Below, piece by piece: positions 3,185 to 58,155 of a stretch of 64,000 bases of DNA; positions within the stretch are counted from its first letter, which is position 1; the number at the start of each line of letters is the position of its first letter. The notes under the pieces were generated by a model. It did not search any database. It had not been told where the DNA came from and was given only the letters and a program-made list of their open reading frames with translations. The DNA comes from Patescibacteria group bacterium (lineage in GTDB: Bacteria > Patescibacteriota > Minisyncoccia > UBA6257 > GWB1-50-10), in the NCBI GenBank assembly GCA_040757555.1, contig JBFLWN010000002.1, positions 83,116-147,115 of the forward strand, read 5' to 3'. The position numbers and the translations under genes were made by a program.

Positions 3185-4984
3185 CTATACCACCTCCGCT
3201 TGATAACATTGTTCACAATAGACTATTTCTTTCCTTTCGGGTGCATATGATGTCTCGAATTCATTGGGGCACCTTCCTGTTCCATGTTGATGTTGTGCAG
3301 TGTTTTGATATATTCCATTCTCTGATTTTTCACCAGTACACTGACAAGCGCGATGCCAGAGCTTCATCGGATTGCGTTTGTTAAAACGTTCAAAGTGACG
3401 TGTATTCGGACATTTCCGTGGAAGCGGAATATTCATCCTCCGATAGAATGCTAACTCCTCGGGAATAATGCGAAATGCTTTTGTGCAATTATGTTCGGCA
3501 GTAACATCCAGAGAACCACGCTTCTCCCACGTTTCACATGAAATTATTTCATTCAAAATATCATCACCAATTGAAGAGATGCGTTCAGGAAGATCTTGAT
3601 ATGACTTCGTTGCAACATGTTCTTTTTCCTGCGGATCTTCCCATACATATCCAACTTTTTGAGCTTCTTCTTTTGTCATAGGAAAATGATCATATGCCGC
3701 CGTTGTATTATATGCGGAAGTGGAAAGATCGGGTGGATAAAATTCTCCAAATTTATATTCCCTCCCCTGTTTGTCCTTATACGGCATCGCATTCATGTGC
3801 TCAATAATCTTCGGAACAAGCGCTTCATATTCTTCTTTTGTGTATTGTTTATTCAGAATGCAATATTCTTTACTTTTTAATCCAATGCATCCAAATAAAT
3901 TTGAAGAGGAATAACAATTATCTACATATGTTAAGTCGTGACATGAATCCCACGTCTCGTTCGCAAAACGAATATTCGAAACATTGTATCCGCAATTTGA
4001 TGTTTCATATACAAGCTCGGTGGCTCTCCCCCAATATGAATAATCCATACAATCTTTCGCTTCAAAAATAGAAAGGAGATATTTTCCATTTTCGACTTCT
4101 CTCGACTGGTACGAGTCTTTCACCCTATTACAATTATTTAACCAATTCCCGGAAACATCGGTACTGTTTATATTGGTTACCGACTGATGAATAGTACCAG
4201 CCACAAGTGCGGAAAAACGTTCGGAAAGTTTTTGTAATCCGGCAGCGGTATCAAGATCCAACTCTTTTATCTTTTTTTCATACTCTTCCTTCGTATATTG
4301 CTTATTTAAAATTGAATATTGCGCATTTCTAAGTCCTGCGCACGCAATGCAGTTGGTACAATTTCTGCAATCGAAAAGAAAATAAGAATCGCGACACTGC
4401 TTACACTCCTGACAATATTGAACATTGTAACAATCATTAATATCGATGGATTGATACGCAAGTTCGGATTTATCTGCATTAAAACAATCGGCGCAGTCAC
4501 GTGAATTCCAGAGGAGGTATGAATAGCGGGAATTTTCATTGTAATTTGCCCGAATAAGTAAATAACAATCCTTGTTGTAACTTGCCCGATTACAATATTC
4601 ACTTCCCACAATATCTCCCTGACGAATAAGAGAGGCGCGAGGTACCCGCATTTTCATTTCCTTAAATTGCTCAAAAAACGGTTTATCAAAATTATATTCC
4701 CTTCCGTATGAAATTGGATCCCATTTATCGCTTCGATAACATTCGAGACAATACAGAGGAAAAGATGTTCCGGGCGGATACATCGCAATCATATTTTTTC
4801 CGCATAAACTGCAGGTGTTTTTATACAAATGCCGTTCATTACAAAACGAAAGTCTCCGCTGAAATCGACAGGGAGGACACCAGGTCGGCGCGGGCACTTT
4901 TATTTTTTCATAAAAATCAAAGTCCTCCGGTGCAATGGTAAACGAGTTTTTGCAGTTTTGACACTGTTTTGCCTCCGAATTCAT
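3185..4984 (-). CDS. Cys-rich multi-zinc-ribbon protein, paralog 1 of 5 (599 aa), family not recognised
   Basis: Long intact ORF. N-terminus MNSEAKQCQNCKNSF...PTWCPPCRFQRR is a rubredoxin-like CxxC...WCPxC knuckle pair. Central CRNCTNCIAC...GLRNAQYSILNKQYTKEEYE module, with a second copy degenerate (SSNLFGCIGLKSKEYCILNKQYTKEEYE). C-terminal FYRRMNIPLPRKCP...CQC...CEQCYQAEVV. About 40 Cys. No signal peptide or TM. Confidence 0.8.
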   Translation of the reverse strand: MNSEAKQCQNCKNSFTIAPEDFDFYEKIKVPAPTWCPPCRFQRRLSFCNERHLYKNTCSLCGKNMIAMYPPGTSFPLYCLECYRSDKWDPISYGREYNFDKPFFEQFKEMKMRVPRASLIRQGDIVGSEYCNRASYNKDCYLLIRANYNENSRYSYLLWNSRDCADCFNADKSELAYQSIDINDCYNVQYCQECKQCRDSYFLFDCRNCTNCIACAGLRNAQYSILNKQYTKEEYEKKIKELDLDTAAGLQKLSERFSALVAGTIHQSVTNINSTDVSGNWLNNCNRVKDSYQSREVENGKYLLSIFEAKDCMDYSYWGRATELVYETSNCGYNVSNIRFANETWDSCHDLTYVDNCYSSSNLFGCIGLKSKEYCILNKQYTKEEYEALVPKIIEHMNAMPYKDKQGREYKFGEFYPPDLSTSAYNTTAAYDHFPMTKEEAQKVGYVWEDPQEKEHVATKSYQDLPERISSIGDDILNEIISCETWEKRGSLDVTAEHNCTKAFRIIPEELAFYRRMNIPLPRKCPNTRHFERFNKRNPMKLWHRACQCTGEKSENGIYQNTAQHQHGTGRCPNEFETSYAPERKEIVYCEQCYQAEVV

Positions 4985-4998
4985 ATACCTATATTACC

Positions 4999-6696
4999 CT
5001 AAATTATCTCTGCGTTGTAGCACGTCTCGCAGTAGATGATCTCTGGCCTCTCCGACGAATAAGAAGTCTCAAATTTATTTACACATTGTCCATTATGACC
5101 GTGAGATAATTCTTTGCACATACATTGTCGATGCCAAAGTTTTCGAGGTGGACGAAGTGATATGCGCTTTCGATAGCGACATTCTGGACAATTTCTGGGG
5201 ATCGGAATATTCATTCGCTTATAAAACTCGACTTCGGGATCAACCACATTATAATTTCGATCGCATGAAATACAGGTGAGCGCTTCTTTTGTTATTGAAT
5301 CTGATACATCGACAATAGTATCGGGAATTTGATCGGGGGAAAGAGTTCCCTTTCCACGGGTTACTCGAACGTCATCCTGCCATCGAAATCCCCGAGAAAT
5401 TGCAATCTCTTTCTCCATCGGCATATAGATATCTCCATGGGTCTCGTTATATCCGAAAGGAGATAATGCGGGAGGAAAAAATTCACCATATTCTCCTCTC
5501 TTTTTCATTTCTTCAACGAGCTCACTTTTTATGTGCTCATACTCCTCTTCCGAATATTGCGTATTTAAAATACAATATTCTCCTTTTCTCACACCAACAC
5601 ATCCAAAAAGATTTTGTGAATTATGGCATGAGTCACAATAATCTATAAACGTGTTCTCATATGAGAGATGACAAAACCTCACGTTCGATGCATTGGTAAG
5701 TGCATGCGATTCATAGGTAAGCTCGGTTGTCCCCAATCCAACACTCAAAAGGTCCATCGAATCCTTCGCAATAACGATTGCGCTATGACGAACATTCTCG
5801 CTGTCGTAGGCATAATAGCCATTATATATATTTCGGGAATTATGAATTTCATCCCCCACCACATTCTGTGATTTTTCTATCTGTGCATATTTGTGTATTC
5901 CTTTATGTTGAATAATATCAATCCATTTTTTATACAGTTCCGCGCGTTCTCGATATGATCCCAAATTAAATTCTTTCAATTTTTTGTCGTACTCCTCTTT
6001 CGTCAATTGTTCATTTAAAAAACAGTATTTTTTATTCCTTAAATTCCAGCTCAAGAAACAATTTTGACAATTAGTACAATCAAAACAATATTTACACTCA
6101 ATACTGTCATGCACAAAAAAACAAAATTCACACTTAAAATCCCTATCACAATGAAAACATTCATATAAAAACTCTCCCCCTTCGTATGCAAGATTTACAT
6201 CACAGGAGTCTTTTGTGCCATTCCAACAATTGCTCAAATAAAATCCATTTTCACAATTAAAACAGTCAAATGAAAGATATACATTTTTATTGTCCGCCGA
6301 ATGGTTGGTATATTCACTGTTTACAGAATTTTTTCCAAGAAGTGCAACCCGCGGAACCTTTAATTGTAATTCTTTAAATTGTTCAAAAAACGGGCGATTT
6401 ATATCTATCTTCATTGCAAAATCCATAGGACTCCACGTATCTCCCCACCAACACGTATGACAATACACCTTATATGGTGCGTCAGGATGATAAATCGTCA
6501 CTGTTGATTTTCCACACAAATCACAGTTCCTTCGATAGAGGTTACGTTCATTTCGCCATGCATAACGCCTCATCTGCCGACAATCAGGACACCACATTGG
6601 TAGTGGAACATTTATTTTCCCGTAAAATTCAAAATCTTCACTCTCGAGGGTGAAGTTGTGTTTGCAGTTTTGACATTGCTTTGTCTCAGCATTCAT
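4999..6696 (-). CDS. Cys-rich multi-zinc-ribbon protein, paralog 2 of 5 (565 aa)
   Basis: Tandem with paralog 1 (14-nt gap). Same architecture: MNAETKQCQNCKHNF...MWCPDCR; CKYCFDCTNCQNC...LRNKKYCFLNEQLTKEEYD; CDSCHNSQNLFGCVGVRKGEYCILNTQYSEEEYE; C-terminal NCPECRYRKR...CETCYNAEII. The start codon and 12 upstream nt are identical to paralog 1. Confidence 0.8.
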   Translation of the reverse strand: MNAETKQCQNCKHNFTLESEDFEFYGKINVPLPMWCPDCRQMRRYAWRNERNLYRRNCDLCGKSTVTIYHPDAPYKVYCHTCWWGDTWSPMDFAMKIDINRPFFEQFKELQLKVPRVALLGKNSVNSEYTNHSADNKNVYLSFDCFNCENGFYLSNCWNGTKDSCDVNLAYEGGEFLYECFHCDRDFKCEFCFFVHDSIECKYCFDCTNCQNCFLSWNLRNKKYCFLNEQLTKEEYDKKLKEFNLGSYRERAELYKKWIDIIQHKGIHKYAQIEKSQNVVGDEIHNSRNIYNGYYAYDSENVRHSAIVIAKDSMDLLSVGLGTTELTYESHALTNASNVRFCHLSYENTFIDYCDSCHNSQNLFGCVGVRKGEYCILNTQYSEEEYEHIKSELVEEMKKRGEYGEFFPPALSPFGYNETHGDIYMPMEKEIAISRGFRWQDDVRVTRGKGTLSPDQIPDTIVDVSDSITKEALTCISCDRNYNVVDPEVEFYKRMNIPIPRNCPECRYRKRISLRPPRKLWHRQCMCKELSHGHNGQCVNKFETSYSSERPEIIYCETCYNAEII

Positions 6697-13919: not shown

Positions 13920-13931
13920 GAGGAATTTTTG

Positions 13932-14002
13932 TGCGGGATACGGGAATCGAACCCGTGTCTCAACCTTGGGAAGGTCGCATTCTACCACTGAACCAATCCC
14001 GC
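13932..14002 (-). tRNA. tRNA-Gly (anticodon CCC)
   Basis: Minus-sense GCGGGATTGGTTCAGTGGTAGAATGCGACCTTCCCAAGGTTGAGACACGGGTTCGATTCCCGTATCCCGCA. Acceptor GCGGGAT/ATCCCGC, anticodon loop TTCCCAA, T-loop TTCGATT. Confidence 0.85.
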
Positions 14003-19486: not shown

Positions 19487-19557
19487 CGGGCTGTAGTATA
19501 CCGGTAGTACGCATGCATGGGGTGCATGTAGACCGGGTTCAATTCCCGGCAGCCCGA
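19487..19557 (+). tRNA. tRNA-Pro (anticodon GGG)
   Basis: CGGGCTGTAGTATACCGGTAGTACGCATGCATGGGGTGCATGTAGACCGGGTTCAATTCCCGGCAGCCCGA. Acceptor CGGGCTG/CAGCCCG, anticodon stem CATGC/GCATG, loop ATGGGGT, T-arm CCGGG-TTCAATT-CCCGG. Confidence 0.85.
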
Positions 19558-19600
19558 CATAATTATAAAATCTCGCTTTATGCGGGGTTTTATAATTTAT

Positions 19601-19717
19601 GATGTGTTGGGAATTGAAGGGAACCACGAGCGCATATGGGATATGAATAAGCGAGTGGTCCCTGGTTTCGAAGGAGGAGTGAAACGACGGGAGAGAAAAA
19701 TTCCCGGCAGCCCGACA
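19601..19717 (+). repeat. tRNA-Pro-linked repeat unit 1 (inverted T-arm copy at 5' end, direct copy of tRNA 3' end at 3' end)
   Basis: gggaattgaa at 19609-19618 is the reverse complement of the tRNA-Pro T-loop plus stem (ttcaattccc). ttcccggcagcccgaca at 19701-19717 is a direct copy of the tRNA 3' end. Preceded by an AT-rich hairpin at 19558-19600. Confidence 0.6.
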
Positions 19718-19744
19718 ACGGAGAGATGAAAGTTCGCACTTGAG

Positions 19745-19880
19745 TGCGAATTGTCGGAAATTGAAGGGCGGAGCGATGTGTATTCAGCAGAATGCACCGC
19801 GAGCCCGGGCTCGAAACCTTTTTGAGTGACGGCGAAAAAAGAGTTGAGAGAATTCCCCCCATACCGACATAATTATAAAA
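19745..19880 (+). repeat. tRNA-Pro-linked repeat unit 2 (diverged tandem copy of unit 1)
   Basis: ggaaattgaaggg at 19756-19768 and gaattccccccataccgacataattataaaa at 19850-19880 (compare the tRNA's aattcccggcagcccgacataattataaaa). Aligns with unit 1 along its length (GAGCG, TCGAA, GACGG, TTCCC..CCGACA). Confidence 0.6.
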
Positions 19881-22608: not shown

Positions 22609-24387
22609 TTAAACCACTTCCGCCTGATAACAACTCTCACAATAGACAATCTCTGTTCTATCGGGAGAATAATTTGTTTCAAACCCATTTGGACAAGAAT
22701 CCTTTCCGTGAATATGTGTAGAAGTATTTTGGTATATTCCATTTTCTGATTTCTCACCTCCACACTGACACTTTCGATACCAATGTTTTATCGTATTACG
22801 ACGTTTTAATCTAGTATAATGCCGACAATTGGGACAAAGCCGCGGAAGCGGAATATTCATAAGTTTATAAAATTCAAGTTCTGACCGAATAATTCTAAAT
22901 GCTGTTGTACAATTATCTTTACATTTTCCTTCATGAGCGCACCCAATAACCTCGTCAAGGATACCGTCACCCGCATCTTTCGCATATGCAGGAAGTTCAC
23001 TTGGTTTTCTTGTAATAGAGTAATTCTTTGTATCAACTATGTGCCAATTAAATCCATTTTCCATTGCCTCTTCCATTGTGAATGGTAAATGTTCTTGATC
23101 CGGAGTCTCATTATATCCAAGGGGTGAAAACTCTGCGGGAAAAAATTCTCCATACTTGTAACTCCTTCCTATTTTATCCTTATAAGGTACCCCACTCATC
23201 TGCTGAACCAATTTTTCAACGAGTACCCCATATTCTTCTTTTGAATATTGTTTGTTGAGAATACAGTATTGTTTATTCCGAAGACCAAAACATCCAAAAC
23301 AATCCGAGGTGGAGATGCAGCTCCCACAATATTGAAGATTTTTTACATTCGTCCAACATTGAAAGCAAAATTTAATATTATATGCACCATCACCGATTTG
23401 ACTACTTTCATACACCAATTCATTACCGATAAAAGTGGAAAGATCATAACAATCTTTATTGGGGCCCGCCTGAAGATACTGACAATACTTAATATCTTCG
23501 CCATCTCTTATTAAAAATGAATTTTTTACATTTTTTGATTGATTAATATAATCCCCCGTAACATCTACATTTTTTGTTCCCTCCATAAATTTTACCGGAA
23601 AATTAAGCCAAAAATTTATTGCCTTCATTTTATATTCCTCAAACAGATCATAGGAACCAGAGAAAATTTTTTTTATTTCTTCTCCATATTCTTCTTTTGA
23701 ATATTGTTCGTTAAAAATACAATAACTTTTGTTTCGCATATTTACACACCCAAAACAATCAGAACATCCCCTTAAATTCTTCGAAAAATAAATATCAAAA
23801 CAGTCTTCACAATTTTCTGAATACACCGCCCTATTGCACCGCGTAAGCCAGAATCCTTCATAACAGAGTTCACTGTGAGAAATATGGGAGTTGTCGAAAC
23901 AACTCTTCGAATAGTCGATGCCGTTTGAATATGCAGAATCTTCCGAATAATTCCCGTTAAAACAAAGATAGCAATTTTTAAAGCCGGTACACTGATTCGA
24001 ATAATCACTTGCTACCGGGTTTATTACGCTTTTTGCGCGCCAAGGAACATCATGCCAAAGTTCAAGAATTTGTTGTAAAAAAGGTTTTGTGAAATCAATA
24101 TTTCTTCCATAATCCATTGGATCCCATTTATCAGAATTCCATATATCGAGTTCATACACCTTTATAGGTGCATCCGGAGCACATTGAGAAAAAATCATTT
24201 CCCCAGAAAAATCGCTTTTTCGCTTGTACAGAAAATGCTCATTACGAAATGCAAATCGTCGTTGAAAACGACATATCGGACACCACGTTGGTGGAGGCAC
24301 ATCTATTTTTTTGTAGAAATCAAAATCTTCACTCTCAATAGTGAAGTTATTATGGCAATTCTGACACGTTTTTACCTCCGAACTCAT
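22609..24387 (-). CDS. Cys-rich multi-zinc-ribbon protein, paralog 3 of 5 (about 592 aa)
   Basis: MSSEVKTCQNCHNNFTIESEDFDFYKKIDVPPPTWCPICRFQRR. Central CSDCFGCVNMRNKSYCIFNEQYSKEEY and CGSCISTSDCFGCFGLRNKQYCILNKQYSKEEY. C-terminal LCPNCRHY...CESCYQAEVV. The second and third N-terminal CxxC pairs are lost (SDFSGE, ELDIW). The start was trimmed from the track's 24495 because that extension reads through a tRNA-Thr 3'-end copy. Confidence 0.75.
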   Translation of the reverse strand: MSSEVKTCQNCHNNFTIESEDFDFYKKIDVPPPTWCPICRFQRRFAFRNEHFLYKRKSDFSGEMIFSQCAPDAPIKVYELDIWNSDKWDPMDYGRNIDFTKPFLQQILELWHDVPWRAKSVINPVASDYSNQCTGFKNCYLCFNGNYSEDSAYSNGIDYSKSCFDNSHISHSELCYEGFWLTRCNRAVYSENCEDCFDIYFSKNLRGCSDCFGCVNMRNKSYCIFNEQYSKEEYGEEIKKIFSGSYDLFEEYKMKAINFWLNFPVKFMEGTKNVDVTGDYINQSKNVKNSFLIRDGEDIKYCQYLQAGPNKDCYDLSTFIGNELVYESSQIGDGAYNIKFCFQCWTNVKNLQYCGSCISTSDCFGCFGLRNKQYCILNKQYSKEEYGVLVEKLVQQMSGVPYKDKIGRSYKYGEFFPAEFSPLGYNETPDQEHLPFTMEEAMENGFNWHIVDTKNYSITRKPSELPAYAKDAGDGILDEVIGCAHEGKCKDNCTTAFRIIRSELEFYKLMNIPLPRLCPNCRHYTRLKRRNTIKHWYRKCQCGGEKSENGIYQNTSTHIHGKDSCPNGFETNYSPDRTEIVYCESCYQAEVV

Positions 24388-24446
24388 ACCAAAATTATAG
24401 TAGAAAACACCATAAAACAAAAATATTTCTTTCAAAATATTTTTAG

Positions 24447-24600
24447 TTGAGCCAATGGTCGGCAATTGAACGTCGCTTTTCAAACTCCCTGACACCTTGC
24501 GGTTTCAGTGCTTCCACCACGGGAAAACTCCCGTTTTCCCGATCCCTTTCCCGTTCAAATCCGACACGCAATAAAAAATACTCTTTTCAGAGTGTTTTTT
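24447..24600 (-). repeat. tRNA-Thr-linked repeat unit (AT hairpin, inverted T-arm copy, direct copy of tRNA 3' end)
   Basis: Minus-sense order after the tRNA: hairpin aaaaaacactctgaaaagagtatttttt; then gtcggatttgaac (revcomp of the tRNA-Thr T-arm gttcaaatccgac; plus-strand coordinates 24553-24565); then a spacer; then gttcaattgccgaccattggctcaa at 24447-24471, which copies the tRNA's last 16 nt ccgaccattggctcaa. Confidence 0.55.
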
Positions 24601-24607
24601 ATTATTG

Positions 24608-24680
24608 AGCCAATGGTCGGATTTGAACCGACGACCCACGCTTTACGAAAGCGTTGCTCTACCAACTGAGCTACATTGGC
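24608..24680 (-). tRNA. tRNA-Thr (anticodon CGT)
   Basis: GCCAATGTAGCTCAGTTGGTAGAGCAACGCTTTCGTAAAGCGTGGGTCGTCGGTTCAAATCCGACCATTGGCT. Anticodon stem ACGCT/AGCGT, loop TTCGTAA. Confidence 0.85.
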
Positions 24681-37307: not shown

Positions 37308-39125
37308 TTATAAAAATTCCGATTTGTAACAATCATGACAATATATAATTTCTTCTTGTTCGGGAGAAAATGTTGTTTCAAATTCGTTGGGACACGATTT
37401 ATCCCCATGAAAATGCTCTGTGGTATTTGTATAGGGTAATAGTTTTTGGTCTTTTATCTTCGGTTGATTACACTGACACCTTCTCCTATAAAGATGAAAC
37501 CCGTTTCGCCATGAAAGTATCTCAGCTGTTCTGCAACTGGGACAAAGACGAGGGAGTGCGATATTCATTTCCCGATGAAATGCCAACTCTTCTTTGGTAA
37601 TACGAAATGCCTTTGTACATCCATCAAGACACGCGTTGTGCTCGGTCTGCCACACATTTGTAGAATGTTCACATTCAATAATTTCATCCAAAATTGAATC
37701 AGGAACATCATTTATATGATCCGGGATATCGCCATACTTCAATGAAATTTTATAATTTCGTTCCGCTTCGTCCCGCCACTGCCATCCCTCCTCGAGGATT
37801 TCCTCTTTGGTTCTTGGATACCAAGGGAATGCTGCAGACTCGTTGTATGCATATGCGGAAAATTCTGGTGGAAAAAACTCTCCGAATTTATATATTCTTC
37901 CTTTTTTATCGATATACGGCATATCGTCCATATGTACTCGTATCACTTTGGACAATGTTTCGTATTCTTCTTTTGTATACTGTCGGTTCAATATACAGTA
38001 TTTTTTATTCTGAATTGATACACACCCGATTGAATGAGACGAATTTCTTGCCCAATCACAATACATTGTGTCAATAGAATTATTTCCTCCCGCTGAAAAG
38101 AAACATCGCTCAACATTCCTTGTCATCGCATAAATTTCATAAAGAAGTTGAGAATTTATCCCCCCTCCACCCACATCATAACTGTCTTTCAAACCCAACC
38201 CTCCAAAGTAAATATATTTACAATTTTCCACGTTATCGAGTGCGGAGAAACATGTTTTGCAATTTTTTGTATCGCGGATAATATCGCCCGTAACATTTTG
38301 ACTATTCAATACGTGGGCATATCGTCGTGGGAGAGAAAGATAAAATGCCCTAAATTTTGTTTTTGCCTCTTGAAGTTTTTTATAACTTCCCAAATCCCAA
38401 TATTTTAATTTCGAGAAATATTCCTCTTTCGAAAATTTTTCGTTAAATATACAATATTTTTGTTTTCTTAAATTCACACATCCAAAACAATCGGAACACC
38501 CGACACAATCAAAAAGAAACAGAGAATCGAGACATTCATCCGAGAAATATCCAAACTGTGTCCGATAGAGACGATTTGAGTGAAGCGAGAAATACACGTG
38601 ATCCGAATTATCGACAACATAAGAATCATACGTATCCTTTGAAAATAAAAGTCCATAATCAAACTGGGAATTCTCCGAAAAATAACTCCAAAATACATAG
38701 TAGCAATTTTTAAGACTCTGGCCCGCGTGTGAATATTCACTTTCAATAAGATTTGTACCGGTAAATGCCGGTCGCGGAACCGCTTCAAGAAGTTTCCGAT
38801 ATTGTACAAAAAATGGCTGCGAAAAATCATATTCCCGACCGTAATCCATAGGATCCCATTTATCGGAAAACCAGCATTCACGACAATACACGGTAAAAGA
38901 CGTTCCTGGGGCGTGAATAGTGATGATCTGTTTTCCGCACAGTCCGCACACGTTTTTATAGAGCGTCCGCTCTTCTCTCCACATCATTCGTCTTAAGTTT
39001 CGACACTCCGGACACCATGTCGGCGCCGGTACATCAATTTTTTTGTAGAAATCAAAATCCTCCGGTTCAATAATAAATTCCGTCTTGCAGTTTTGGCAGA
39101 TCCTATTTTCTTGTTGGTTTTCCAT
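37308..39125 (-). CDS. Cys-rich multi-zinc-ribbon protein, paralog 4 of 5 (605 aa)
   Basis: MENQQENRICQNCKTEF...PTWCPECRNLRR...CGLCGK...CRECW. CVGCSDCFGCVNLRKQKYCIFNEKFSKEEY, with the second module degenerate (SSHSIGCVSIQNKKYCILNRQYTKEEYE). C-terminal LCPSCRT...CHDCYKSEFL. Confidence 0.8.
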   Translation of the reverse strand: MENQQENRICQNCKTEFIIEPEDFDFYKKIDVPAPTWCPECRNLRRMMWREERTLYKNVCGLCGKQIITIHAPGTSFTVYCRECWFSDKWDPMDYGREYDFSQPFFVQYRKLLEAVPRPAFTGTNLIESEYSHAGQSLKNCYYVFWSYFSENSQFDYGLLFSKDTYDSYVVDNSDHVYFSLHSNRLYRTQFGYFSDECLDSLFLFDCVGCSDCFGCVNLRKQKYCIFNEKFSKEEYFSKLKYWDLGSYKKLQEAKTKFRAFYLSLPRRYAHVLNSQNVTGDIIRDTKNCKTCFSALDNVENCKYIYFGGLGLKDSYDVGGGGINSQLLYEIYAMTRNVERCFFSAGGNNSIDTMYCDWARNSSHSIGCVSIQNKKYCILNRQYTKEEYETLSKVIRVHMDDMPYIDKKGRIYKFGEFFPPEFSAYAYNESAAFPWYPRTKEEILEEGWQWRDEAERNYKISLKYGDIPDHINDVPDSILDEIIECEHSTNVWQTEHNACLDGCTKAFRITKEELAFHREMNIALPRLCPSCRTAEILSWRNGFHLYRRRCQCNQPKIKDQKLLPYTNTTEHFHGDKSCPNEFETTFSPEQEEIIYCHDCYKSEFL

Positions 39126-39149: not shown

Positions 39150-40931
39150 TTATACTATTTCCGCTTGATAGCATTGTTCGCAATAGACAATCTCTTTTCG
39201 GTCAGGAGAATAACTCGTTTCGAATTCATTTTGACACGCCCCTTCGTGTTGATGCTTCCCGGTATTTGTGTATATTCCATTTTCACTTTTTATACCCGCA
39301 CATTGGCACGTTCGCTTCCAAAGTTTTAGAGGATTTCGTTGTTTTAGTCGAGCGTAATGACGACAATTTGGACAGAGATTTGGAAGTGGAATTCCATTTT
39401 TCTTATAAAGCTGAAATTCTTGAGGAATAATTTTAAATGCAATCGTGCATTGGTCGTTACAATTTCCTCCATGGGCGCACGCGATAATATCATTAGTTAT
39501 TGAGTCTGAAATATTATTTATATCATCCGGAATATTTTCCGATTTTATGGTTACTTTATAATCTCTCTCTTCTCTATCTCTCCAGGTATATCCCTTTTTT
39601 ATCGTCTCTTCTTTGGTGAGGGGAAAATATTCCTGCACCGCTGCTTCATTATAAGCAAATGGGGAAAATTCTATGGGAAAAAATTCTCCATATTTATATT
39701 CCCTTCCCGCCGAATCTTTATATGGATGTTCATTCATCTGAGCAATAATTTCCCCTACTTTATGCTCATAATCTTCCTTCGTGTACTGTTTGTTTAAAAT
39801 ACAATATTGCTTATTGCGAAGTCCTATACATCCAAAACAATTCGAACAATTTCTCAAAAAATAACAGTAACGAATTGAATAGCTATCCCATACATTTCCC
39901 GAAAACGCAGCGTCATGCATATTGCTCCCCGCGTCCATAACATCATAGCTCTTTTCCATATTCACCCCAACCGCATATGCATCATAAAGATCTCTCATGT
40001 CGGTAACCCCATATATTACAAAACGCGAATCTTCCAATGGCCCCTCTATATCGAAACAATCCTTGCTATTTTTTACCTCTTTCAAATAATCGCCTGTGGC
40101 ATTAACAATGTGACGTGAGTTGGAAAACTTTTTTGGATATTTGAGAACAAGAGAAGAAAATTTTTCTTTGAAATTTTCATTTCCCGTCTTTGTGTTTAAA
40201 TGAAGTGTATTTACCTCATTTTTATATTCTTCTTCGGATAATTTTCTATTTAAAATACAATACTTACTGTTGCGCAAACCGACACAACCAATGCAATATT
40301 GGCAATTTCGACAGTCATAACAATATTTCGAATCAATACAAGTATCGGAAAGAATAAGATGGTCGCTGTTATAACACCCTTCAGAATCGATAAGTTCATA
40401 ACATCCCTCATTCTTACTCGATCCAATCATGTCGGATGAATTTTTGTTTTTGATTGAATGATAAAGGTAAGACGAATCTTCATTCATATCACTCGCAAAA
40501 TTCAAATAACAGTTTTTTGATTGATAGGTGAAATTGCAATAATCACTTTCAACCCCATCAATATTAATGAGTGCGGGAGTAGGCACCTTATAAAGAAGTT
40601 CCTTCCATTGTTCGAGAAATGGACGCGATGGATCATATACCGACCCAAATTCCATCGGATCCCACTTATCACTCCACCAATATGTGTGGTCATATACTTT
40701 TGCTGGTGATTCTGGCGAATACATAGAAATAAGCATCTCCTCGTGACCAGGGGCATCACATTTTCTTTTATAGAGATTACGTTCGTTTCTGAAACTAAGC
40801 CGACGCTGTAATCTACACTCCGGACAAAACGTCGGGGCGGGAACATCCATTTTTTTGTAGAAATCAAAATCCTCACTCTCAATCGTGAACTGATTTTTGC
40901 AATTCTGACATTGTTTAGTTTCTGAATTCAT
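39150..40931 (-). CDS. Cys-rich multi-zinc-ribbon protein, paralog 5 of 5 (593 aa)
   Basis: MNSETKQCQNCKNQF...PTFCPECRLQRR. The second and third N-terminal CxxC pairs are lost (CDAPGH, DHTYW). CRNCQYCIGCVGLRNSKYCILNRKLSEEEY and NCSNCFGCIGLRNKQYCILNKQYTKEDYE. C-terminal LCPNCRHYARLKQRN...CEQCYQAEIV. Confidence 0.8.
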   Translation of the reverse strand: MNSETKQCQNCKNQFTIESEDFDFYKKMDVPAPTFCPECRLQRRLSFRNERNLYKRKCDAPGHEEMLISMYSPESPAKVYDHTYWWSDKWDPMEFGSVYDPSRPFLEQWKELLYKVPTPALINIDGVESDYCNFTYQSKNCYLNFASDMNEDSSYLYHSIKNKNSSDMIGSSKNEGCYELIDSEGCYNSDHLILSDTCIDSKYCYDCRNCQYCIGCVGLRNSKYCILNRKLSEEEYKNEVNTLHLNTKTGNENFKEKFSSLVLKYPKKFSNSRHIVNATGDYLKEVKNSKDCFDIEGPLEDSRFVIYGVTDMRDLYDAYAVGVNMEKSYDVMDAGSNMHDAAFSGNVWDSYSIRYCYFLRNCSNCFGCIGLRNKQYCILNKQYTKEDYEHKVGEIIAQMNEHPYKDSAGREYKYGEFFPIEFSPFAYNEAAVQEYFPLTKEETIKKGYTWRDREERDYKVTIKSENIPDDINNISDSITNDIIACAHGGNCNDQCTIAFKIIPQEFQLYKKNGIPLPNLCPNCRHYARLKQRNPLKLWKRTCQCAGIKSENGIYTNTGKHQHEGACQNEFETSYSPDRKEIVYCEQCYQAEIV

Positions 40932-49361: not shown

Positions 49362-49432
49362 TTAGTTTATTGGGGGATCGTCTAACGGTAGGACACCGCC
49401 CTTTGGAGGCGGGTATCGGGGTTCGAATCCCT
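49362..49432 (+). tRNA. tRNA-Gln (anticodon TTG)
   Basis: TGGGGGATCGTCTAACGGTAGGACACCGCCCTTTGGAGGCGGGTATCGGGGTTCGAATCCCTGTCCCCCAG. Anticodon stem CCGCC/GGCGG, loop CTTTGGA; close to canonical bacterial tRNA-Gln. Confidence 0.8.
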
Positions 49433-49477
49433 GTCCCCCAGCAAATATAAATTAGGCACATCTTTATGGTGTGCTTA

Positions 49478-49609
49478 ATTTATATCTCGTTGAAGGGATT
49501 CGAACGGAACTTTTGCGCATGCATTGCATGAAAAAGCAAAAGTCCGTGGCTTCGGAGGAATCCCGCCATCGGCGGGATGGAGGAGAAGGAATCCCTGTCC
49601 CCCAGCAAA
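49478..49609 (+). repeat. tRNA-Gln-linked repeat unit (same organisation as the Pro and Thr units)
   Basis: After an AT-rich hairpin (aaattaggcacatctttatggtgtgcttaattt) comes ttgaagggattcgaacgg (T-arm-derived, 49484-49501), then an internal hairpin aatcccgccatcggcgggat, then ggaatccctgtcccccagcaaa at 49588-49609, which copies the last 22 nt of tRNA-Gln plus trailer. Confidence 0.55.
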
Positions 49610-49610
49610 A

Positions 49611-49645
49611 AAAGAAAGCGACACAAAATGTCGCTTTCTTTATAT
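49611..49645 (+). terminator. Rho-independent terminator (gaaagcgacacaaaatgtcgctttc + T-run)
   Basis: Hairpin at 49614-49638 followed by tttatatttt. Confidence 0.6.
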
Positions 49646-49658
49646 TTTATTCAGTTAT

Positions 49659-50822
49659 CTATTTCCATTCCTTCACTACTTGCCATTTTATATTAAGTGC
49701 GGCACCAAGAGTTATCGCTACCGCAATAGATGTCACAATCCAACCCAGGAAAGGTATCGCACCAAGAAGTACATATACTATCGTGCCAAGTAATATGGTT
49801 TTCCAATTGATAATATAATCCGATTTTTTGAATATCCACTTGTACACGAGAGTGCCCATAACTATCGGAGTGATTATCGCCGCATAGATGCAAAGCATTA
49901 CAAAAGAAAGTAGTCCGAGTATACCGAGAGGAATTCCTATAACAGAAACAAGAAGAATAATCGAAAGCACCGGAAGCACAATGAAAGTAACCACACCACG
50001 CCCAAGTTCCTTGAGTGGGTTTGTAGTGGCTTTTTCCACGAGTTCCTTGCTGTACCGACGGAACATAAGTCCGACGATAAGAGCTGCAACCAATAACATT
50101 ACAAATTTTGCGAGAAGCATCAAAGTAAAGAACCCAAATATTCCCTTTCTTGTATCTTTCTTCATTCCCTCACTCCCTTTTAATTGGGTGAAAACAGTTT
50201 CTCCCCGTACCTTACCTCCCTCTTCTATAACGACGGGATTTGGTGATTCATATTTAAGATTACCTTTTATGTCCGCATCCGGTCCCAAAGTTAAATTTCC
50301 GGCTTTGATATCCACATTGCCTCCGATAGGCGCATTCACATAAACTTTTCCACCGGCAATTTTTACACTTCCCTTTACTTCGGAATCCATTCTCACGGTT
50401 CCACCTGCCATTACTGCATCTCCACCTATTAATTTACCCGACAGGATTAGTTGTCCTCCGCCCACAAGAACATCACCCACAACATCACCATTCACCGTGA
50501 TGTTTCCCCCACCCACGCGCATATCTCCAGAAACCTGACTCAAAATTGTTATATTACCGCCTACGACAAATAAATCGCCTGCAATCGGCCCCGATATGAG
50601 TGCTGTGCCACCGGCGACCAAAAGATCCTTATCTACGCTTCCCGCACTAATAACGGTTCCACCTGCCATATACAGATTCCCTTCTGTTTTTTCTCCAGAA
50701 GTGAATGCTGATTGCTGTCCCGCTCTGAATTCCGCGGCAGATACCAAAACGGGAAACACAAATACAAACAAAGCCAATACCACGAGCACCTTGTTAAAAT
50801 TTTTCATATACATATTATACAC
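49659..50822 (-). CDS. bactofilin-like beta-helical repeat protein with signal peptide and C-terminal multi-TM domain
   Basis: Signal peptide (KVLVVLALFVFVFPVLVSA). More than six GD..VxGG..xI/V repeats typical of polymer-forming bactofilin (PF04519-like). C-terminal about 150 aa with 4-5 TM helices. Confidence 0.5.
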   Translation of the reverse strand: MYNMYMKNFNKVLVVLALFVFVFPVLVSAAEFRAGQQSAFTSGEKTEGNLYMAGGTVISAGSVDKDLLVAGGTALISGPIAGDLFVVGGNITILSQVSGDMRVGGGNITVNGDVVGDVLVGGGQLILSGKLIGGDAVMAGGTVRMDSEVKGSVKIAGGKVYVNAPIGGNVDIKAGNLTLGPDADIKGNLKYESPNPVVIEEGGKVRGETVFTQLKGSEGMKKDTRKGIFGFFTLMLLAKFVMLLVAALIVGLMFRRYSKELVEKATTNPLKELGRGVVTFIVLPVLSIILLVSVIGIPLGILGLLSFVMLCIYAAIITPIVMGTLVYKWIFKKSDYIINWKTILLGTIVYVLLGAIPFLGWIVTSIAVAITLGAALNIKWQVVKEWK

Positions 50823-50850
50823 CCAGAAAACCTAAATCTCATATATTAAA

Positions 50851-50876
50851 AAACGACACAAAGTGTCGCTTTTTTA
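50851..50876. terminator. Bidirectional terminator (cgacacaaagtgtcg)
   Basis: Hairpin flanked by A6 and T6, immediately downstream of glutaredoxin (-). Confidence 0.6.
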
Positions 50877-50883
50877 TCCCCTT

Positions 50884-51123
50884 TTATTTCCCCAACAATT
50901 CTTCAAAGACATCGGGTCTGAATCCTATTATGATTTCCCCCTCAATATCGATTACGGGCACCCCCATCTGTCCGCTCTTTAAAATCATTTCCTGTGCCGC
51001 TGACCTGTCCTCTCCCACATTCTTATCTTCGAAAGAAATCCCCTTTTGTTTGAAATAATCCTTCGTATACACACAATACGGACATGTGGTGGTTGAATAC
51101 ACAATCACTTTTTTATTTTCCAT
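50884..51123 (-). CDS. glutaredoxin (CPYC active site)
   Basis: VIVYSTTTCPYCVYTKDYF...GVPVIDIEGEIIIGF. Paralog of the gene at 24727-24963. Confidence 0.8.
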   Translation of the reverse strand: MENKKVIVYSTTTCPYCVYTKDYFKQKGISFEDKNVGEDRSAAQEMILKSGQMGVPVIDIEGEIIIGFRPDVFEELLGK

Positions 51124-51146
51124 ATTTTTTAATTAATAACGACATT

Positions 51147-51419
51147 TTATTTATATTTGCAGATAAACTTTTTTAAATCCCTCACAAAGACCCCCTTGGG
51201 CAATGTATAGCAGATCTTTTTCCCTTCGCGCACCGGAACAACCAATTTCTCTCCCGACATAACCCGAAGATGGTGGGAGGTGATTGCAACACTCGCGTGA
51301 AGAGTTTTTGCCATATCCGACACACATACCTTCTTCCTTCTGAAGAGTACACATAAAATTCTAAGCCTACTTTCATCCCCAGCGGTACGCATTAATTGTG
51401 CCAACTCATTCAAATGCAT
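51147..51419 (-). CDS. ArsR/SmtB-family transcriptional regulator
   Basis: ESRLRILCVLF...VCVSDMAKTLHASVAITSHHLRVM is an HTH_5 pattern. Directly upstream of glutaredoxin. Confidence 0.7.
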   Translation of the reverse strand: MHLNELAQLMRTAGDESRLRILCVLFRRKKVCVSDMAKTLHASVAITSHHLRVMSGEKLVVPVREGKKICYTLPKGVFVRDLKKFICKYK

Positions 51420-51525
51420 ATTTGAATGCTATATTTTCTATTTATTTTGTCAATAGGATATGAAATAAAAAATACCACACGGTTGTATTACTTATGAAAG
51501 GTCGATTCGGTTCATACAATGGAAC

Positions 51526-51909
51526 ATGATTATTATGAACAAAACAAAAAAAACGGTATTGAGCCTTGGAATGATTGCATTAGTGATGGGCGTGACCATG
51601 ATTTTTGCTGAATCAGTAAGTGCATATCAAGGAGATCCAGCAACAAAAGGTCCCAACTATTCGACAGAACGTCACGCTGCGATGGAAAAAGCCTTTGAGA
51701 CGAATGATTACACCGCCTGGAAAAACCTTATGCAAAACAAAGGTAGAGTTACGCAAGTTATCAATAAAGACAATTTTGCAAAATTTGCCCAGGCGCATAC
51801 ATTAGTGGAAAAAGGCGATATGGTTGGAGCTCAAAAAATAAAACAAGAGCTCGGATTTGGATTGAGAAATGGTGGAGGAAAAGGAATGAGAGGTATGTCG
51901 CAAAAATAA
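51526..51909 (+). CDS. hypothetical secreted protein (127 aa)
   Basis: Signal peptide (TVLSLGMIALVMGVTMIFAESVSA) and a Gly-rich C-terminus. Confidence 0.45.
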   Translation: MIIMNKTKKTVLSLGMIALVMGVTMIFAESVSAYQGDPATKGPNYSTERHAAMEKAFETNDYTAWKNLMQNKGRVTQVINKDNFAKFAQAHTLVEKGDMVGAQKIKQELGFGLRNGGGKGMRGMSQK

Positions 51910-51920
51910 AACCAAATAAC

Positions 51921-51951
51921 AAAAAAGCGACACCTTGTGTCGCTTTTTTGT
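51921..51951. terminator. Bidirectional terminator (agcgacaccttgtgtcgct + T6)
   Basis: Near-identical hairpin family to those at 49614 and 50854. Confidence 0.65.
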
Positions 51952-52160
51952 TATTCCTCTTCAATCTCCCGTTTTATATCTTTAAACTCGTTTTCAACTT
52001 CTTTCAATCTCGTTTTGCTGAGCTTGATGAGTGCCGATGCCTGTTTCACTTTTTCGAGTGCCTCCTCAACATCCAATTCCTCTTGTGCATTAAACCACTC
52101 GAGAATCTTTTCTATCTCTTTTAATTGATCTTTAAATTGTTTTGATTCTTTCTTTACCAT
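51951..52160 (-). CDS. xseB: exodeoxyribonuclease VII small subunit
   Basis: 69 aa helical protein (QLKEIEKILEWFNAQEELDVEEALEKVKQASALIK) downstream of xseA. Confidence 0.8.
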   Translation of the reverse strand: MVKKESKQFKDQLKEIEKILEWFNAQEELDVEEALEKVKQASALIKLSKTRLKEVENEFKDIKREIEEE

Positions 52161-52162
52161 AA

Positions 52163-53296
52163 TTATATAGTAACACGATCGACCGTTGATTCGACACTTC
52201 CGTCGCTCAATTGCACATTCAACGAATCCCCTTTTTCCAAACCACGAGCATTTTTCACCACCTTCCCTTCTTTTCGCACTATTGAATATCCAAATTTCAA
52301 TTGGCGTGTCGGATCATTGAATTTTATCGTCTGCTCTGCAAACGCAATTTTTTGTTTTATTGTTTCTATCCGCTCTATCACATGATCAATAATTGAACTC
52401 CACGACAAATCCACATCCGCATAAATTCTTTTGATCTCCTGTGCAACGCGCGTGAGTATTTGTGACATCTGACCGATTTTTGCGTATGCCTCCTGCCACG
52501 AATAATTAATAAGATGTGTTGCGGCAGTGGGAGTCGAAACCATCACATCCGCGGCAAGCGCCACAAGCGGAACATCTTTATCGTGTCCAATCCCCGCAAT
52601 TACAGGAACCGGAAAGTTCACCACTTCCCGCACCAGTGCCTCATTATTAAATGCCTGAAGTGACTCCAACGACCCTCCTCCGCGGATAATCACCAACACC
52701 TCAATATCTTTTTTTTTCAACGTGTGTATCGCTTCAATGAGTGATTTCACCGCCTGCTGTCCCTCCACTCGTGAATCCACTAAATTTACTTGATATCCAA
52801 ATTTCCCCAAATTGTTTATAAAATCGTGAATCACGGCTCCTTCTCGAGATGTAATGACTCCAATTTTATGAATAAGCTCCGGCAATGGGCGTTTTCGCTC
52901 GGGAGCAAAAATTCCCTCCCCTTCCAATTTCTTTTTCAGCTCATCATATGCTTTTTTAAGTGCCCCTTCACCGCGAAGTTCAATTGTGTCCGCCACAAAA
53001 GAAAATCTCCCCGTTGGAGCGTATATTTGCGGATGACCCGTGAGTAACAATTCCATTCCTACCTCCATATTGATTCCACACCGCATATAATTCCCCTTCC
53101 ATATAACGGAACTCATCACCGCATCACTATTTTGATCTTTTAGCGAAAAATACACATGACCCGATACCGCTTTCTGCACCTGCGAGACTTCACCGATTAA
53201 TTTAATTTCCTCGCGTTTCAAAAACGTGTTCAGTATCTCAATGTATTCCGAAACAGTAAAAATTTTTTCTTTCTGATCTTCCATAGATATTTTCAT
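52163..53296 (-). CDS. xseA: exodeoxyribonuclease VII large subunit
   Basis: N-terminal OB fold (EVSQVQKAVSGHVYFSLKD) and a catalytic core (VITSREGAVIHDF, IIRGGGS). Confidence 0.88.
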   Translation of the reverse strand: MKISMEDQKEKIFTVSEYIEILNTFLKREEIKLIGEVSQVQKAVSGHVYFSLKDQNSDAVMSSVIWKGNYMRCGINMEVGMELLLTGHPQIYAPTGRFSFVADTIELRGEGALKKAYDELKKKLEGEGIFAPERKRPLPELIHKIGVITSREGAVIHDFINNLGKFGYQVNLVDSRVEGQQAVKSLIEAIHTLKKKDIEVLVIIRGGGSLESLQAFNNEALVREVVNFPVPVIAGIGHDKDVPLVALAADVMVSTPTAATHLINYSWQEAYAKIGQMSQILTRVAQEIKRIYADVDLSWSSIIDHVIERIETIKQKIAFAEQTIKFNDPTRQLKFGYSIVRKEGKVVKNARGLEKGDSLNVQLSDGSVESTVDRVTI

Positions 53297-53475
53297 TATA
53301 CCCGAAATCGAATTTCAACCTTATCTTTTTCCTCCACTTTATCACCAAGCACCGCACACCTCCCATTTATAAACACCCGTTTTTTCTTAATCAACTCATC
53401 AATCTCCCTTCGCGTGGAATTTTTCTCACGTGCCAAATATTTATTCACCCGCATTGGAAATATTGATTCCTCCAT
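53296..53475 (-). CDS. S4-domain RNA-binding small protein (58 aa)
   Basis: Hand-translated MEESIFPMRVNKYLAREKNSTRREIDELIKKKRVFINGRCAVLGDKVEEKDKVEIRFRV. Not in the ORF track (under 60 aa). Its stop overlaps the xseA ATG (TAATG). Confidence 0.55.
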   Translation of the reverse strand: MEESIFPMRVNKYLAREKNSTRREIDELIKKKRVFINGRCAVLGDKVEEKDKVEIRFRV

Positions 53476-53477
53476 AA

Positions 53478-54737: not shown

Positions 54738-54796
54738 TAGCGCTATCCTAACAGAAAAGCGAGGTTGATTCCATCAAACATTTATACAAGGTATTG

Positions 54797-57475: not shown

Positions 57476-57557
57476 TCTTTAATCTTAACAGAAATAATTC
57501 AGTTCAGAAGGGTTCAATAAAATTGATAGAATATGTTTCATATATTATTATTCCTAT

Positions 57558-58127
57558 ATGGGAAAAATAAAACTTGCGGTGTCAGGAGAAAGTGGATCAT
57601 TCTCTGAAGAAGCCGGACTTATTTATGCACAAAGATCAGGAAAAGAAATGGAATTTATATTTGCCATTGATATGGAAGGAGTGCTTTCTCGCGTGGAAAA
57701 AGGTGAAGTTGAATTGGGAATTTTTCCGGTGGTAAATTCACGCGGTGGACTTGTGCAAACCGCGTTTGAAGCAATGGGACGTCACCTTTTCACGATGATC
57801 GATGAAGTGTGGCTCGATGTACATCAATGTCTCATGGTGCTTCCGAATGTAAAAAAAGAAGAAATAAAAAATATCACCAGTCATCCGCAAGCACTCTCAC
57901 AGTGTGAACGATATCTCTCAAAAGAATTCAAGGGTATTCCGCTTACCGAATGGGAAGATACCGCGAAAGCCGCAAAAGATCTTGCGGAAGGAATTCTCCC
58001 GAAAGACACCGCTGTTATTGCTCCTGCCCGCTCGGCGTATATTTATGGACTCTCAATTATCGCGCCAAGTATTCAGGATAATCATCCAAACCTCACCACA
58101 TTCATTGTGGTGAAAAAAACTTCGTAA
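57558..58127 (+). CDS. prephenate dehydratase catalytic domain protein (no ACT domain)
   Basis: Aligns to the PheA PDT domain by eye: LAVSGESGSFSEEA, VELGIFPVVNSRGGLV, ITSHPQALSQCERYL, and NLTTFIVV (the TRF motif region). Confidence 0.65.
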   Translation: MGKIKLAVSGESGSFSEEAGLIYAQRSGKEMEFIFAIDMEGVLSRVEKGEVELGIFPVVNSRGGLVQTAFEAMGRHLFTMIDEVWLDVHQCLMVLPNVKKEEIKNITSHPQALSQCERYLSKEFKGIPLTEWEDTAKAAKDLAEGILPKDTAVIAPARSAYIYGLSIIAPSIQDNHPNLTTFIVVKKTS

Positions 58128-58155
58128 TTATCCCCTGCAGTGATAAACTGAATAC

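Follow-up and report, generated by a model that had tools for sequence, protein, structure and literature searches.

The attC sites of integrons and of integrase-less CALINs are imperfect palindromes of 60–140 nt. Their variable, structured middle lies between two copies of the core site, one inverted and one direct, and structure is kept more than sequence; their unpaired features are among the properties that have been described (PMC5027507). Integron cassettes stack in tandem at one platform, with cargo optional and the enzyme supplied in trans. In IMEX of the CTX-phi type, an inverted and a direct copy of the target lie about 90 nt apart and fold into a mimic of the target whose centre is mismatched; the elements encode no recombinase and form tandem arrays, and the folded single-stranded hairpin attP mimics dif and is served by the host XerCD. 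REPINs and MITEs are non-autonomous extragenic hairpin elements moved in trans, for example by RAYT; they are intergenic, non-coding, about 100 nt long and found behind terminators, and they show covariation that preserves Watson–Crick pairs. Integrases that target tRNA genes have a classical signature, direct repeats that extend from the T-loop to the tRNA 3′ end. Elements that target tRNA or tmRNA genes, including the integrase-less CIMEs, carry such repeats, accrete successively and bring cargo such as restriction-modification genes; the ssrA islands of Dehalococcoides are an example of site-specific accretion (PMC3146451). Fragments of tRNA genes that result from mobile-element integration have also been discussed, and where this source takes up 3′ fragments downstream of an intact gene they are by-products of large elements (PMC9897764).

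The defining features of these nearest known kinds, as far as they were tested, were found only in part in the element studied here, a non-coding cassette of about 120 bases directly behind the tRNA-Thr(CGT) gene of the window (the whole 64-kb stretch of DNA that was analysed), and in its relatives, although these units share many of the properties listed above, including the greater conservation of fold than of sequence. Unlike attC sites, whose arms read RYYYAAC and GTTRRRY, the units have arms taken from the T-loop to the 3′ end of their own tRNA (GGATTCGAAC ... CGAATCC), and the direct copy is without the GTT that the inverted arm complements. Their platform is a tRNA or tmRNA gene and not attI, no IntI was found in the window or the loci, and their hosts are CPR bacteria and Clostridia. 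They differ from CTX-phi-type IMEX in targeting a tRNA T-arm instead of dif and in measuring about 150 bp with no phage genes. The direct repeats (14–23 nt) are those of tRNA/tmRNA-targeting elements, but the units are 10–100 times smaller than such elements and have a conserved structured core and an inverted T-arm copy; neither an integrase nor integrase remnants were found in the units, the window or any locus examined. In contrast to REPINs and MITEs, unit ends are specific to the neighbouring tRNA and a genome holds one to few diverged copies, with no bursts; the inverted arms derive from the target, and the duplication is variable (14–75 nt), whereas that of a MITE is short and fixed. 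No parent IS of the units was found, and no RAYT-like protein among the window ORFs scanned. The tRNA fragment of a unit is an integral arm, unlike the by-products treated in PMC9897764, and, unlike a tandem tRNA duplicate or pseudogene, a unit has no whole-gene similarity to a tRNA. Searches of the literature on tRNA-linked miniature, hairpin or att elements, including an ncRNA survey, returned no description. The family of tRNA-tail cassettes is apparently new to the literature, and there is a real chance that the underlying machinery is new as well.

Organisation of the unit behind tRNA-Thr

The tRNA-Thr(CGT) gene scored 73.1 bits against the Rfam model (gathering score 29). Reading along its strand, there come next an AT-rich hairpin, a 13-nt inverted copy of the T-arm without mismatches (IRL), a core of about 80 nt and a 16-nt stretch identical to the tRNA 3′ end (Table 1), which confirms the layout given in the original prediction. 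The repeated segment of the tRNA (X0) spans the T-stem 3′ strand to the tRNA 3′ end, plus CAA. The window has the 16-mer CCGACCATTGGCTCAA at exactly two places, 24605–24620 (tRNA 3′ end) and 24447–24462, against a chance expectation of 0.05 even with two mismatches allowed, and GTTCAAATCCGAC occurs once in the tRNA (24616–24628, minus strand) and once inverted (24553–24565, plus strand), with 0.15 expected. The IRL covers the T-loop plus the T-stem 3′ strand and has its homologous position in about 100 related units. Similarity between unit and tRNA is confined to the T-loop-to-3′-end segment and its inverse.

The spacer hairpin at 24573–24600 and its T-run were recognised by eye, the G–C pairs of the hairpin being too few for the threshold of the terminator scan; most related loci have a clear terminator in this position. 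Because terminators follow the direct copy in related loci, the AT-only hairpin at 24413–24444 may be a terminator, either of the cassette or of the native tRNA flank.

Table 1. Coordinates of the tRNA genes, the tRNA-linked units and the start region of Cys-rich paralog 3 in the window
Feature	Position	Strand	Basis or remark
tRNA-Thr(CGT) gene	24608–24680	-	ARAGORN (24607–24680) and Rfam RF00005; CCA not encoded
X0, tRNA segment repeated downstream	24605–24620	-	exact 16-mer, 2 window copies
AT-rich hairpin and T-run (aaaaaacactctgaaaagagtatttttt), terminator-like spacer between tRNA and unit	24573–24600	-	read from sequence
IRL gtcggatttgaac	24553–24565	-	exact reverse complement of tRNA G53 to C65; 13 nt
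Core, family e (GGGAAAGGGATCGGGAAAACGGGAGTTTTCCCGTGGTGGAAG...)	24472–24552	-	nhmmer family e match, E = 1e-25
Hairpin P1 in Thr core	24541–24533 / 24528–24520	-	family e alignment and consensus fold
Hairpin P2 in Thr core	24510–24501 / 24496–24488	-	family e alignment and consensus fold
Imperfect T-loop copy gttcaattg	24463–24471	-	with IRL extends closing stem P0 across a small mismatch
IRR / X1 (ccgaccattggctcaa)	24447–24462	-	exact direct copy of tRNA-Thr 3′ end
AT-only hairpin (aaaaatattt tgaaag aaatattttt) and T-rich tail	24413–24444	-	read from sequence
Cys-rich paralog 3, ATG	24385–24387	-	homolog lengths, shared N-terminus; gene 22609–24387
N-terminal ORF extension of paralog 3 (GTG at 24495)	24388–24495	-	ORF reading, homologs
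TATAAT upstream of paralog 3	24399–24394	-	outside unit, behind AT-only hairpin; read from sequence
tRNA-Gly(CCC)	13931–14002	-	ARAGORN, Rfam
tRNA-Pro(GGG)	19487–19558	+	ARAGORN, Rfam
Unit Pro1 behind tRNA-Pro(GGG)	19559–19717	+	terminator, IRL 19609–19619, family f core, copy 19699–19717
Unit Pro2, tandem behind tRNA-Pro	19718–19875	+	weak family c match
tRNA-Gln(TTG)	49371–49442	+	ARAGORN, Rfam
Unit behind tRNA-Gln(TTG)	49443–49609	+	terminator, IRL 49494–49506, family f core, copy 49589–49609

ARAGORN and Rfam identified four tRNA genes in the window. An inverted T-loop and then an exact repeat of the tRNA 3′ end are also found behind tRNA-Pro (repeat of 19 nt; 19541–19559 and 19699–19717) and tRNA-Gln (repeat of 21 nt; 49425–49445 and 49589–49609), and a unit was looked for at tRNA-Gly and is absent there. 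The second unit behind tRNA-Pro ends in a diverged copy of the tRNA 3′ end, aattccccccataccgaca, and is older and more decayed than the first. It had been proposed that the same unit stands behind tRNA-Thr, -Pro and -Gln; this is correct for the architecture but not for the core, which belongs to family e at tRNA-Thr, to family f in Pro1 and at tRNA-Gln and to family c in Pro2. The window repeats and the core families bear out the accompanying claim of tRNA-specific ends around a middle that recurs across loci.

Recurrence and hosts

Metagenome contigs were scanned with a pattern that combined a T-arm and an inverted T-loop, both generic, with a direct copy of which only 5 nt were fixed. The full architecture was found in about 60 of the 120 loci returned, in a sample for which the IRL ending in GAAS-GG and the spacings were partly imposed by design. 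These loci have an exact 14–23-nt copy of the adjacent tRNA 3′ end, 95–200 nt downstream, and an exact 9–19-nt inverted copy of the T-loop and T-stem, at times reaching the acceptor strand. As the copies are far longer than the 5 nt fixed in the pattern, the recurrence goes beyond what the search forced. Units stand behind 17 tRNA isotypes and, apparently, behind tmRNA, the tmRNA 3′ ends being recognised by eye since ARAGORN was run in tRNA-only mode.

A profile HMM search gave 106 non-overlapping units in six core families. Most (84 of 106) lie no more than 90 nt downstream of a tRNA on the same strand, another 10 are second units of tandem arrays, and several of the remaining matches follow tRNA fragments or apparent tmRNA 3′ ends. 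Core families are common to different tRNAs and organisms, and the cores are mostly 59–99 nt long; that of the Thr unit, family e, is found in other organisms behind tRNA-Tyr, -Gln, -Lys, -Leu and -Glu. Hosts include CPR bacteria, with typical CPR neighbour genes and a Magasanikbacteria MAG (locus L009), and gut Oscillospiraceae, where the YitT neighbour of one unit (L163) shares 85% identity with a protein from a MAG bearing that name. Relatives anchored on dnaX place the window itself in a CPR (Patescibacteria) genome. The Thr unit belongs to a widespread family whose members lie behind the tRNA and tmRNA genes of CPR bacteria and gut Clostridia.

The units measure 100–180 bp and contain no ORF. 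Pfam identified no recombinase among 38 window proteins, and all-against-all clustering of 1310 ORFs from the 120 loci gave no common protein other than housekeeping families. Rfam 15 in gathering mode reported only tRNA in the window and in 13 loci spanning the six core families, as did the E-value mode on the three window units. Viral contigs scanned with tRNA tails of 16, 19 and 19 nt yielded chance or coding matches or nothing; the unit pattern found one real unit there, at a contig edge, and two chance matches. Nothing relevant turned up when a family d unit was compared by BLAST with plasmids and phages, and an exact look-up of the window glutaredoxin found no match on record.

A conserved three-way fold

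In all six families the consensus fold is three-way, with a closing stem (P0) formed by the inverted arm and the direct copy that encloses two hairpin domains. In family d (22 members) 98.7% of the cells are paired, and changes on both sides occur in 15 of 22 pairs. Doubly changed cells number 81, compared with 17.3 in shuffles, and none of 500 shuffles reached 81; with slid partners as controls, pairing fell to 30–45%. Family e, analysed by alignment and consensus fold, shows compensatory changes in 12 of 26 pairs.

The stems are almost purely Watson–Crick (2 G·U in 476 cells in family d). Tallies over the six families gave 46 G·U against 27 A·C; 25 of the 46 G·U fall in family a, where one dubious pair contributes 16 of the tally and without which G·U is about as rare as A·C. 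The tRNAs at unit-bearing loci have 11% G·U. Folding of the sense strand is favoured over that of its complement by 3.3 kcal/mol, a margin equal to that of tRNAs. Family d cores have conserved asymmetric internal loops (UAGUGAAU/AGAG), and GNRA-like loops and purine-rich linkers are present in the cores. The strand asymmetry, the conserved internal loops, the GNRA-like loops and the purine-rich linkers would be in keeping with an RNA. The scarcity of wobble pairs suggests a fold that is read in the form of single-stranded DNA.

Arms follow the local tRNA

Both arms track differences between tRNA genes. The window and a locus 80% identical to it over tRNA-Pro and its unit (L209) differ at the acceptor pair 6:67, where one has T:A and the other C:G, and the downstream copy carries the A or G that matches its own pair. 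Within one core family behind tRNA-Ser(GCT), a G57/A57 difference in the T-loop (L141 and L164 versus L215) is mirrored in both arms. The Thr unit of the window matches the TTCAAAT loop of its own tRNA, and a 90% relative (L246) has TTCGAAT. The IRL includes T54/T55, and G53 where it ends in C, whereas the downstream copy is without these. Copying from mature tRNA was ruled out, since the copies in the window continue into genomic CAA, CA or CAAA and not CCA. A minihelix, in which the IRL would pair through the acceptor strand, fits only the few units with an IRL of 16–19 nt.

Presence, absence and accretion

At the tRNA-Thr loci of the closest relatives (L246, L247 and L248) the Thr unit is absent: in L246 the same tRNA precedes a restriction-modification region, L248 combines a 5′ relic of a tRNA of the window type with a different tRNA-Thr, and L247 has a tRNA-Thr and a partial second copy. 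The original prediction had taken lack of conservation in relatives as a sign that the 16-nt match was coincidental; the unit is indeed missing from these three, but the architecture recurs about 100 times elsewhere, and the match is for that reason not a coincidence. The tRNA-Gln genes of L001 and L003 likewise have no unit. L003 is the nearest relative in hand, with roughly 78–85% nucleotide identity over syntenic blocks, and the 8.7 kb that it lacks at tRNA-Gln, considered as an integrated island, proved to hold housekeeping genes with no far-end repeat.

An insertion polymorphism was found among Oscillospiraceae strains whose upstream genes are 98–99% identical (L244, L163, L113 and L242). 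L244 represents the empty site, with tRNA-Tyr, a terminator (s1) and the downstream region, and the other three have tRNA-Tyr, s1 as in L244 and then IRL, core, copy and a second terminator (s2); the alleles of L244 and L163 are not isogenic, their right flanks being only about 80% identical as judged by eye from the alignment. In L241 an s2-like terminator precedes the unit and a third terminator (s3) follows it. Ten 85% relatives (L231–L240) have an identical tRNA-Tyr and no unit. Most simply, comparison of the L244, L163 and L241 alleles suggests that an IRL-core-X-terminator segment was inserted behind the native terminator and that later recombination between repeats swapped terminators. 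This would also explain what we call class 2 loci (about one fifth of units), in which the tRNA 3′ end and its own terminator are duplicated exactly up to the start of the IRL (34 of 34 nt identical in L133). A T-loop crossover of a copy-spacer-IRL-core segment is a less simple reading of the same Oscillospiraceae alleles.

Different family d cores occupy one tRNA-Ser locus in L127 and L205, and two-unit arrays in L155 and L174 differ in their state of decay. In L165, tRNA-Ser is followed by a pair of identical units and a third that is deleted, then by cargo and a fourth; the cargo, bracketed by units, is a 3.3-kb restriction-modification region with HTH-, methylase- and endonuclease-like genes. 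Copies within a genome are diverged: three cores of L147 differ visibly by eye, and the window holds three families. The tRNA loci are also recombination junctions, with identity changing from about 99% to about 80% across the tRNA (L155/L174 and L163/L244).

Possible nature of the units

We read the Thr unit, with a confidence somewhat short of even, as a non-autonomous, structure-specific insertion cassette moved in trans. Its family would be one of non-coding cassettes of about 100–180 bp that lodge directly behind tRNA or tmRNA genes, the IRL and X, arms from their own tRNA, closing the three-way fold (P0, P1, P2). Folded as single-stranded DNA, such a cassette could present a hairpin mimic of the duplex T-arm/acceptor segment, and this folded arm site may be the recombination site of an enzyme acting in trans and not encoded nearby, as for attC, the attP of CTX-phi and REPINs. 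Exchange, with a crossover point that we place provisionally within the shared 14–23-nt tRNA segment, would give direct repeats, tandem accretion, loss by recombination between repeats and occasional capture of cargo. With movement in trans, the tRNA-specific arms and direct repeats find an explanation, as do the arrays, the decay, the cargo and the missing linked enzymes; the diverged copies within genomes argue against the cassette reading, being unlike burst-type MITEs and closer to long-lived resident genes. The main rival, on balance unlikely, is a structured non-coding RNA gene or module linked to the tRNA and made by read-through from it or by transcription of its own, with a 5′ arm antisense to the T-arm, a 3′ end that mimics the tRNA and its own terminator; it might have a part in processing tRNA or controlling its quality, or be a decoy for tRNA-binding factors, and it would spread by duplication and recombination. 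The conserved three-way fold with its strong covariation and conserved loops, the tRNA-like folding advantage of the sense strand and the terminator that usually follows the direct copy would all fit such an RNA, as would a constant co-orientation with the tRNA, which the pattern partly imposed, and arms that in old, diverged copies still match single T-loop and acceptor changes of the local tRNA. An RNA accords less well with stems nearly devoid of G·U, unlike the tRNAs at those loci, or with a terminator that usually precedes the unit and the lack of a promoter-like site in the Thr unit; the unit is dispensable in close relatives, six unrelated core families are hard to reconcile with one catalytic or binding function, and no Rfam family matches.

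The insertion-cassette reading has a programmable variant, which we regard as quite improbable, in which the IRL (10–19 nt) is a guide to the uninterrupted G53–C65 segment, the core is its scaffold and a recombinase or nuclease is encoded in trans. The IRL does match the intact tRNA gene (T54/T55, G53) rather than the cassette's own copy, and one core family serves many tRNAs with matching arms; yet no candidate effector is linked, copying of the target could equally give guide-like matches, and an element targeting its own intact tRNA gene would need to leave that gene unharmed. That the units are ordinary att scars, left by integrase-encoding prophages or islands that inserted at the T-loop and later lost their genes, or that spread solely by homologous recombination via the conserved tRNA, is improbable: their direct repeats fit the signature of tRNA-targeting integrases and the tRNA loci behave as recombination junctions, but about 100 independent cases with tight size, a conserved fold and an inverted T-loop arm are left unexplained, and no integrase remnants were seen. 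This lineage does have partial tRNA duplicates (L003, L247 and L248), so that decayed tandem tRNA duplicates had to be considered together with chance similarity; the tRNA similarity of the unit stops sharply at the T-loop, its middle is unrelated to tRNA, at most 0.15 occurrences are expected per motif and the architecture recurs in many organisms, by which these explanations are effectively refuted.

A wider proposal, which we consider doubtful, is that tRNA and tmRNA genes of CPR bacteria and Clostridia serve as platforms for protein-less cassettes with a folded target-mimicking or guide-like att made from the T-arm of the tRNA, a structure-specific or nucleic-acid-guided recombinase that would insert, stack and excise them in trans, and capture of defence genes. 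If true, this would amount functionally to an integron seated at the tRNA tail that could be aimed anew at any tRNA. Should the units be mobilised in trans, they would represent a new insertion system whose specificity lies in two short arms copied from the target and is retargetable in principle, and a lead for recombinase discovery in CPR bacteria and gut Clostridia. Should they be RNAs, they would form a large unannotated family of tRNA-linked structured RNAs. In either case the units account for partial tRNA copies, for breaks in contigs at tRNA loci and for spurious ORF extensions, such as the 628-aa call for Cys-rich paralog 3, and they flag the tails of tRNA genes as recombination junctions in small genomes.

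Start of Cys-rich paralog 3

It had also been suggested that the Thr unit supplies the promoter region of the adjacent Cys-rich gene. No sigma-70-like site was found in a promoter scan of the unit, and the TATAAT upstream of the gene lies outside it. In L081 the ortholog (86% identical) has another paralog upstream, and neither a tRNA nor a unit; its 5′ region differs and carries a Shine–Dalgarno sequence. The rearrangement came with a changed 5′ region, and the idea that the unit drives the gene is unsupported. The ORF at 22609–24495 (GTG start, 628 aa) runs through the 3′ part of the core and the tRNA-derived copy. That its N-terminal extension is spurious, with the true start at 24387, is backed by the lengths of the homologs and by a common N-terminus: the 120 best homologs listed for the 592-aa version have 573–612 aa with a coverage of 93–100% (mostly 99–100%), and M-x-x-E-x-K-x-CQNC is common to four window paralogs and the top homologs.

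tRNA loci as sites of exchange and tRNA gene replacement

Two pairs of comparison loci from relatives and metagenomes (L155 versus L174, and L163 versus L244) are about 99% identical upstream of the tRNA and about 80% identical downstream of the array of tRNA and units (non-coding cassettes made up of an inverted T-arm copy, a folded core and a copy of the tRNA 3' end), so that these tRNA loci are breakpoints of inter-strain recombination tracts. In the relatives L003, L247, L248 and L081, partial tRNA copies are broken up by small perfect G+C-rich hairpins, including cctgcctgcgcaggcagg within a D-arm and others of the cccgcc..ggcggg types, and a tRNA-Pro tail relic with an internal 30-nt insert is also among them. 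On L248, a different tRNA-Thr is preceded by the 5' remnant of a tRNA-Thr of the window type. tRNA gene replacement in the lineage of the window runs via junctions at conserved D- or T-loop segments.

Coordinates of features at tRNA loci and of the Cys-rich genes
Feature	Sequence	Position	Remarks
Cys-rich paralog	window	3185-4984	
Cys-rich paralog	window	4999-6696	
Cys-rich paralog	window	22609-24387	
Cys-rich paralog	window	37308-39125	
Cys-rich paralog	window	39150-40931	
Distal tRNA-Pro unit	window	19718-19875	weak match to core family c
Region 3' of tRNA-Gln	window	49443-58155	bactofilin-like, ArsR, XseA, flavoprotein, P-type ATPase, prephenate dehydratase
CCCGCC..GGCGGG hairpin	window	49562-49576	within second hairpin of tRNA-Gln unit
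Interrupted tRNA copy	L003	11398-11590	
Interrupted tRNA copy	L247	5371-5467	
Interrupted tRNA copy	L248	1290-1415	
Interrupted tRNA copy	L081	4990-5066	
Restriction-modification genes and tRNAs	L165	8171-11950	units on both sides
Restriction-modification genes and tRNAs	L246	781-5412	adjoin tRNA-Thr
Family d-like unit	L230	72-168	beside tRNA-tail-like fragment

Units in tandem, behind apparent tmRNA genes and at a viral contig edge

Two units lie in tandem at tRNA-Pro of the window. The tRNA-tail copy of the distal one is mismatched at 4 of 19 positions, and the 12 nt directly after it (taattataaaa...) are those that directly follow tRNA-Pro; this unit looks like an older insertion that was displaced downstream. 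Units were also located 3' of apparent tmRNA (ssrA) 3' ends on L115, L167 and L176 (also L123), which were judged by eye, ARAGORN having been run there in tRNA-only mode, and their arms match the T-arm of the apparent tmRNA. The unit on L230, which sits at one extreme end of an IMG/VR viral contig of 53.8 kb, may mark a prophage boundary.

Genes adjoining tRNAs

In two unrelated organisms (L165 and L246), tRNA genes lie directly 5' of restriction-modification genes. L246 is a 90% relative of the window, and the part of its tRNA-Thr locus that was examined showed no unit. The Cys-rich protein of about 590 amino acids is represented in the window by five paralogs (38–47% identity), in which no Pfam domain was found; it has more than 7000 homologs, mostly in Patescibacteria and frequently in tandem.

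The 8.7 kb 3' of tRNA-Gln are absent from the same place in the syntenic relative L003, and neither a repeat nor a recombinase was found as an island mark in this region. In several other CPR genomes (L004, L005 and L013), a small GIY-YIG-type ORF immediately 3' of the dnaX-linked tRNA-Gln occupies the position of the tRNA-Gln unit of the window. The CCCGCC..GGCGGG hairpin of that unit, the only occurrence in the window, is similar to the small hairpins in the tRNA relics of relatives.
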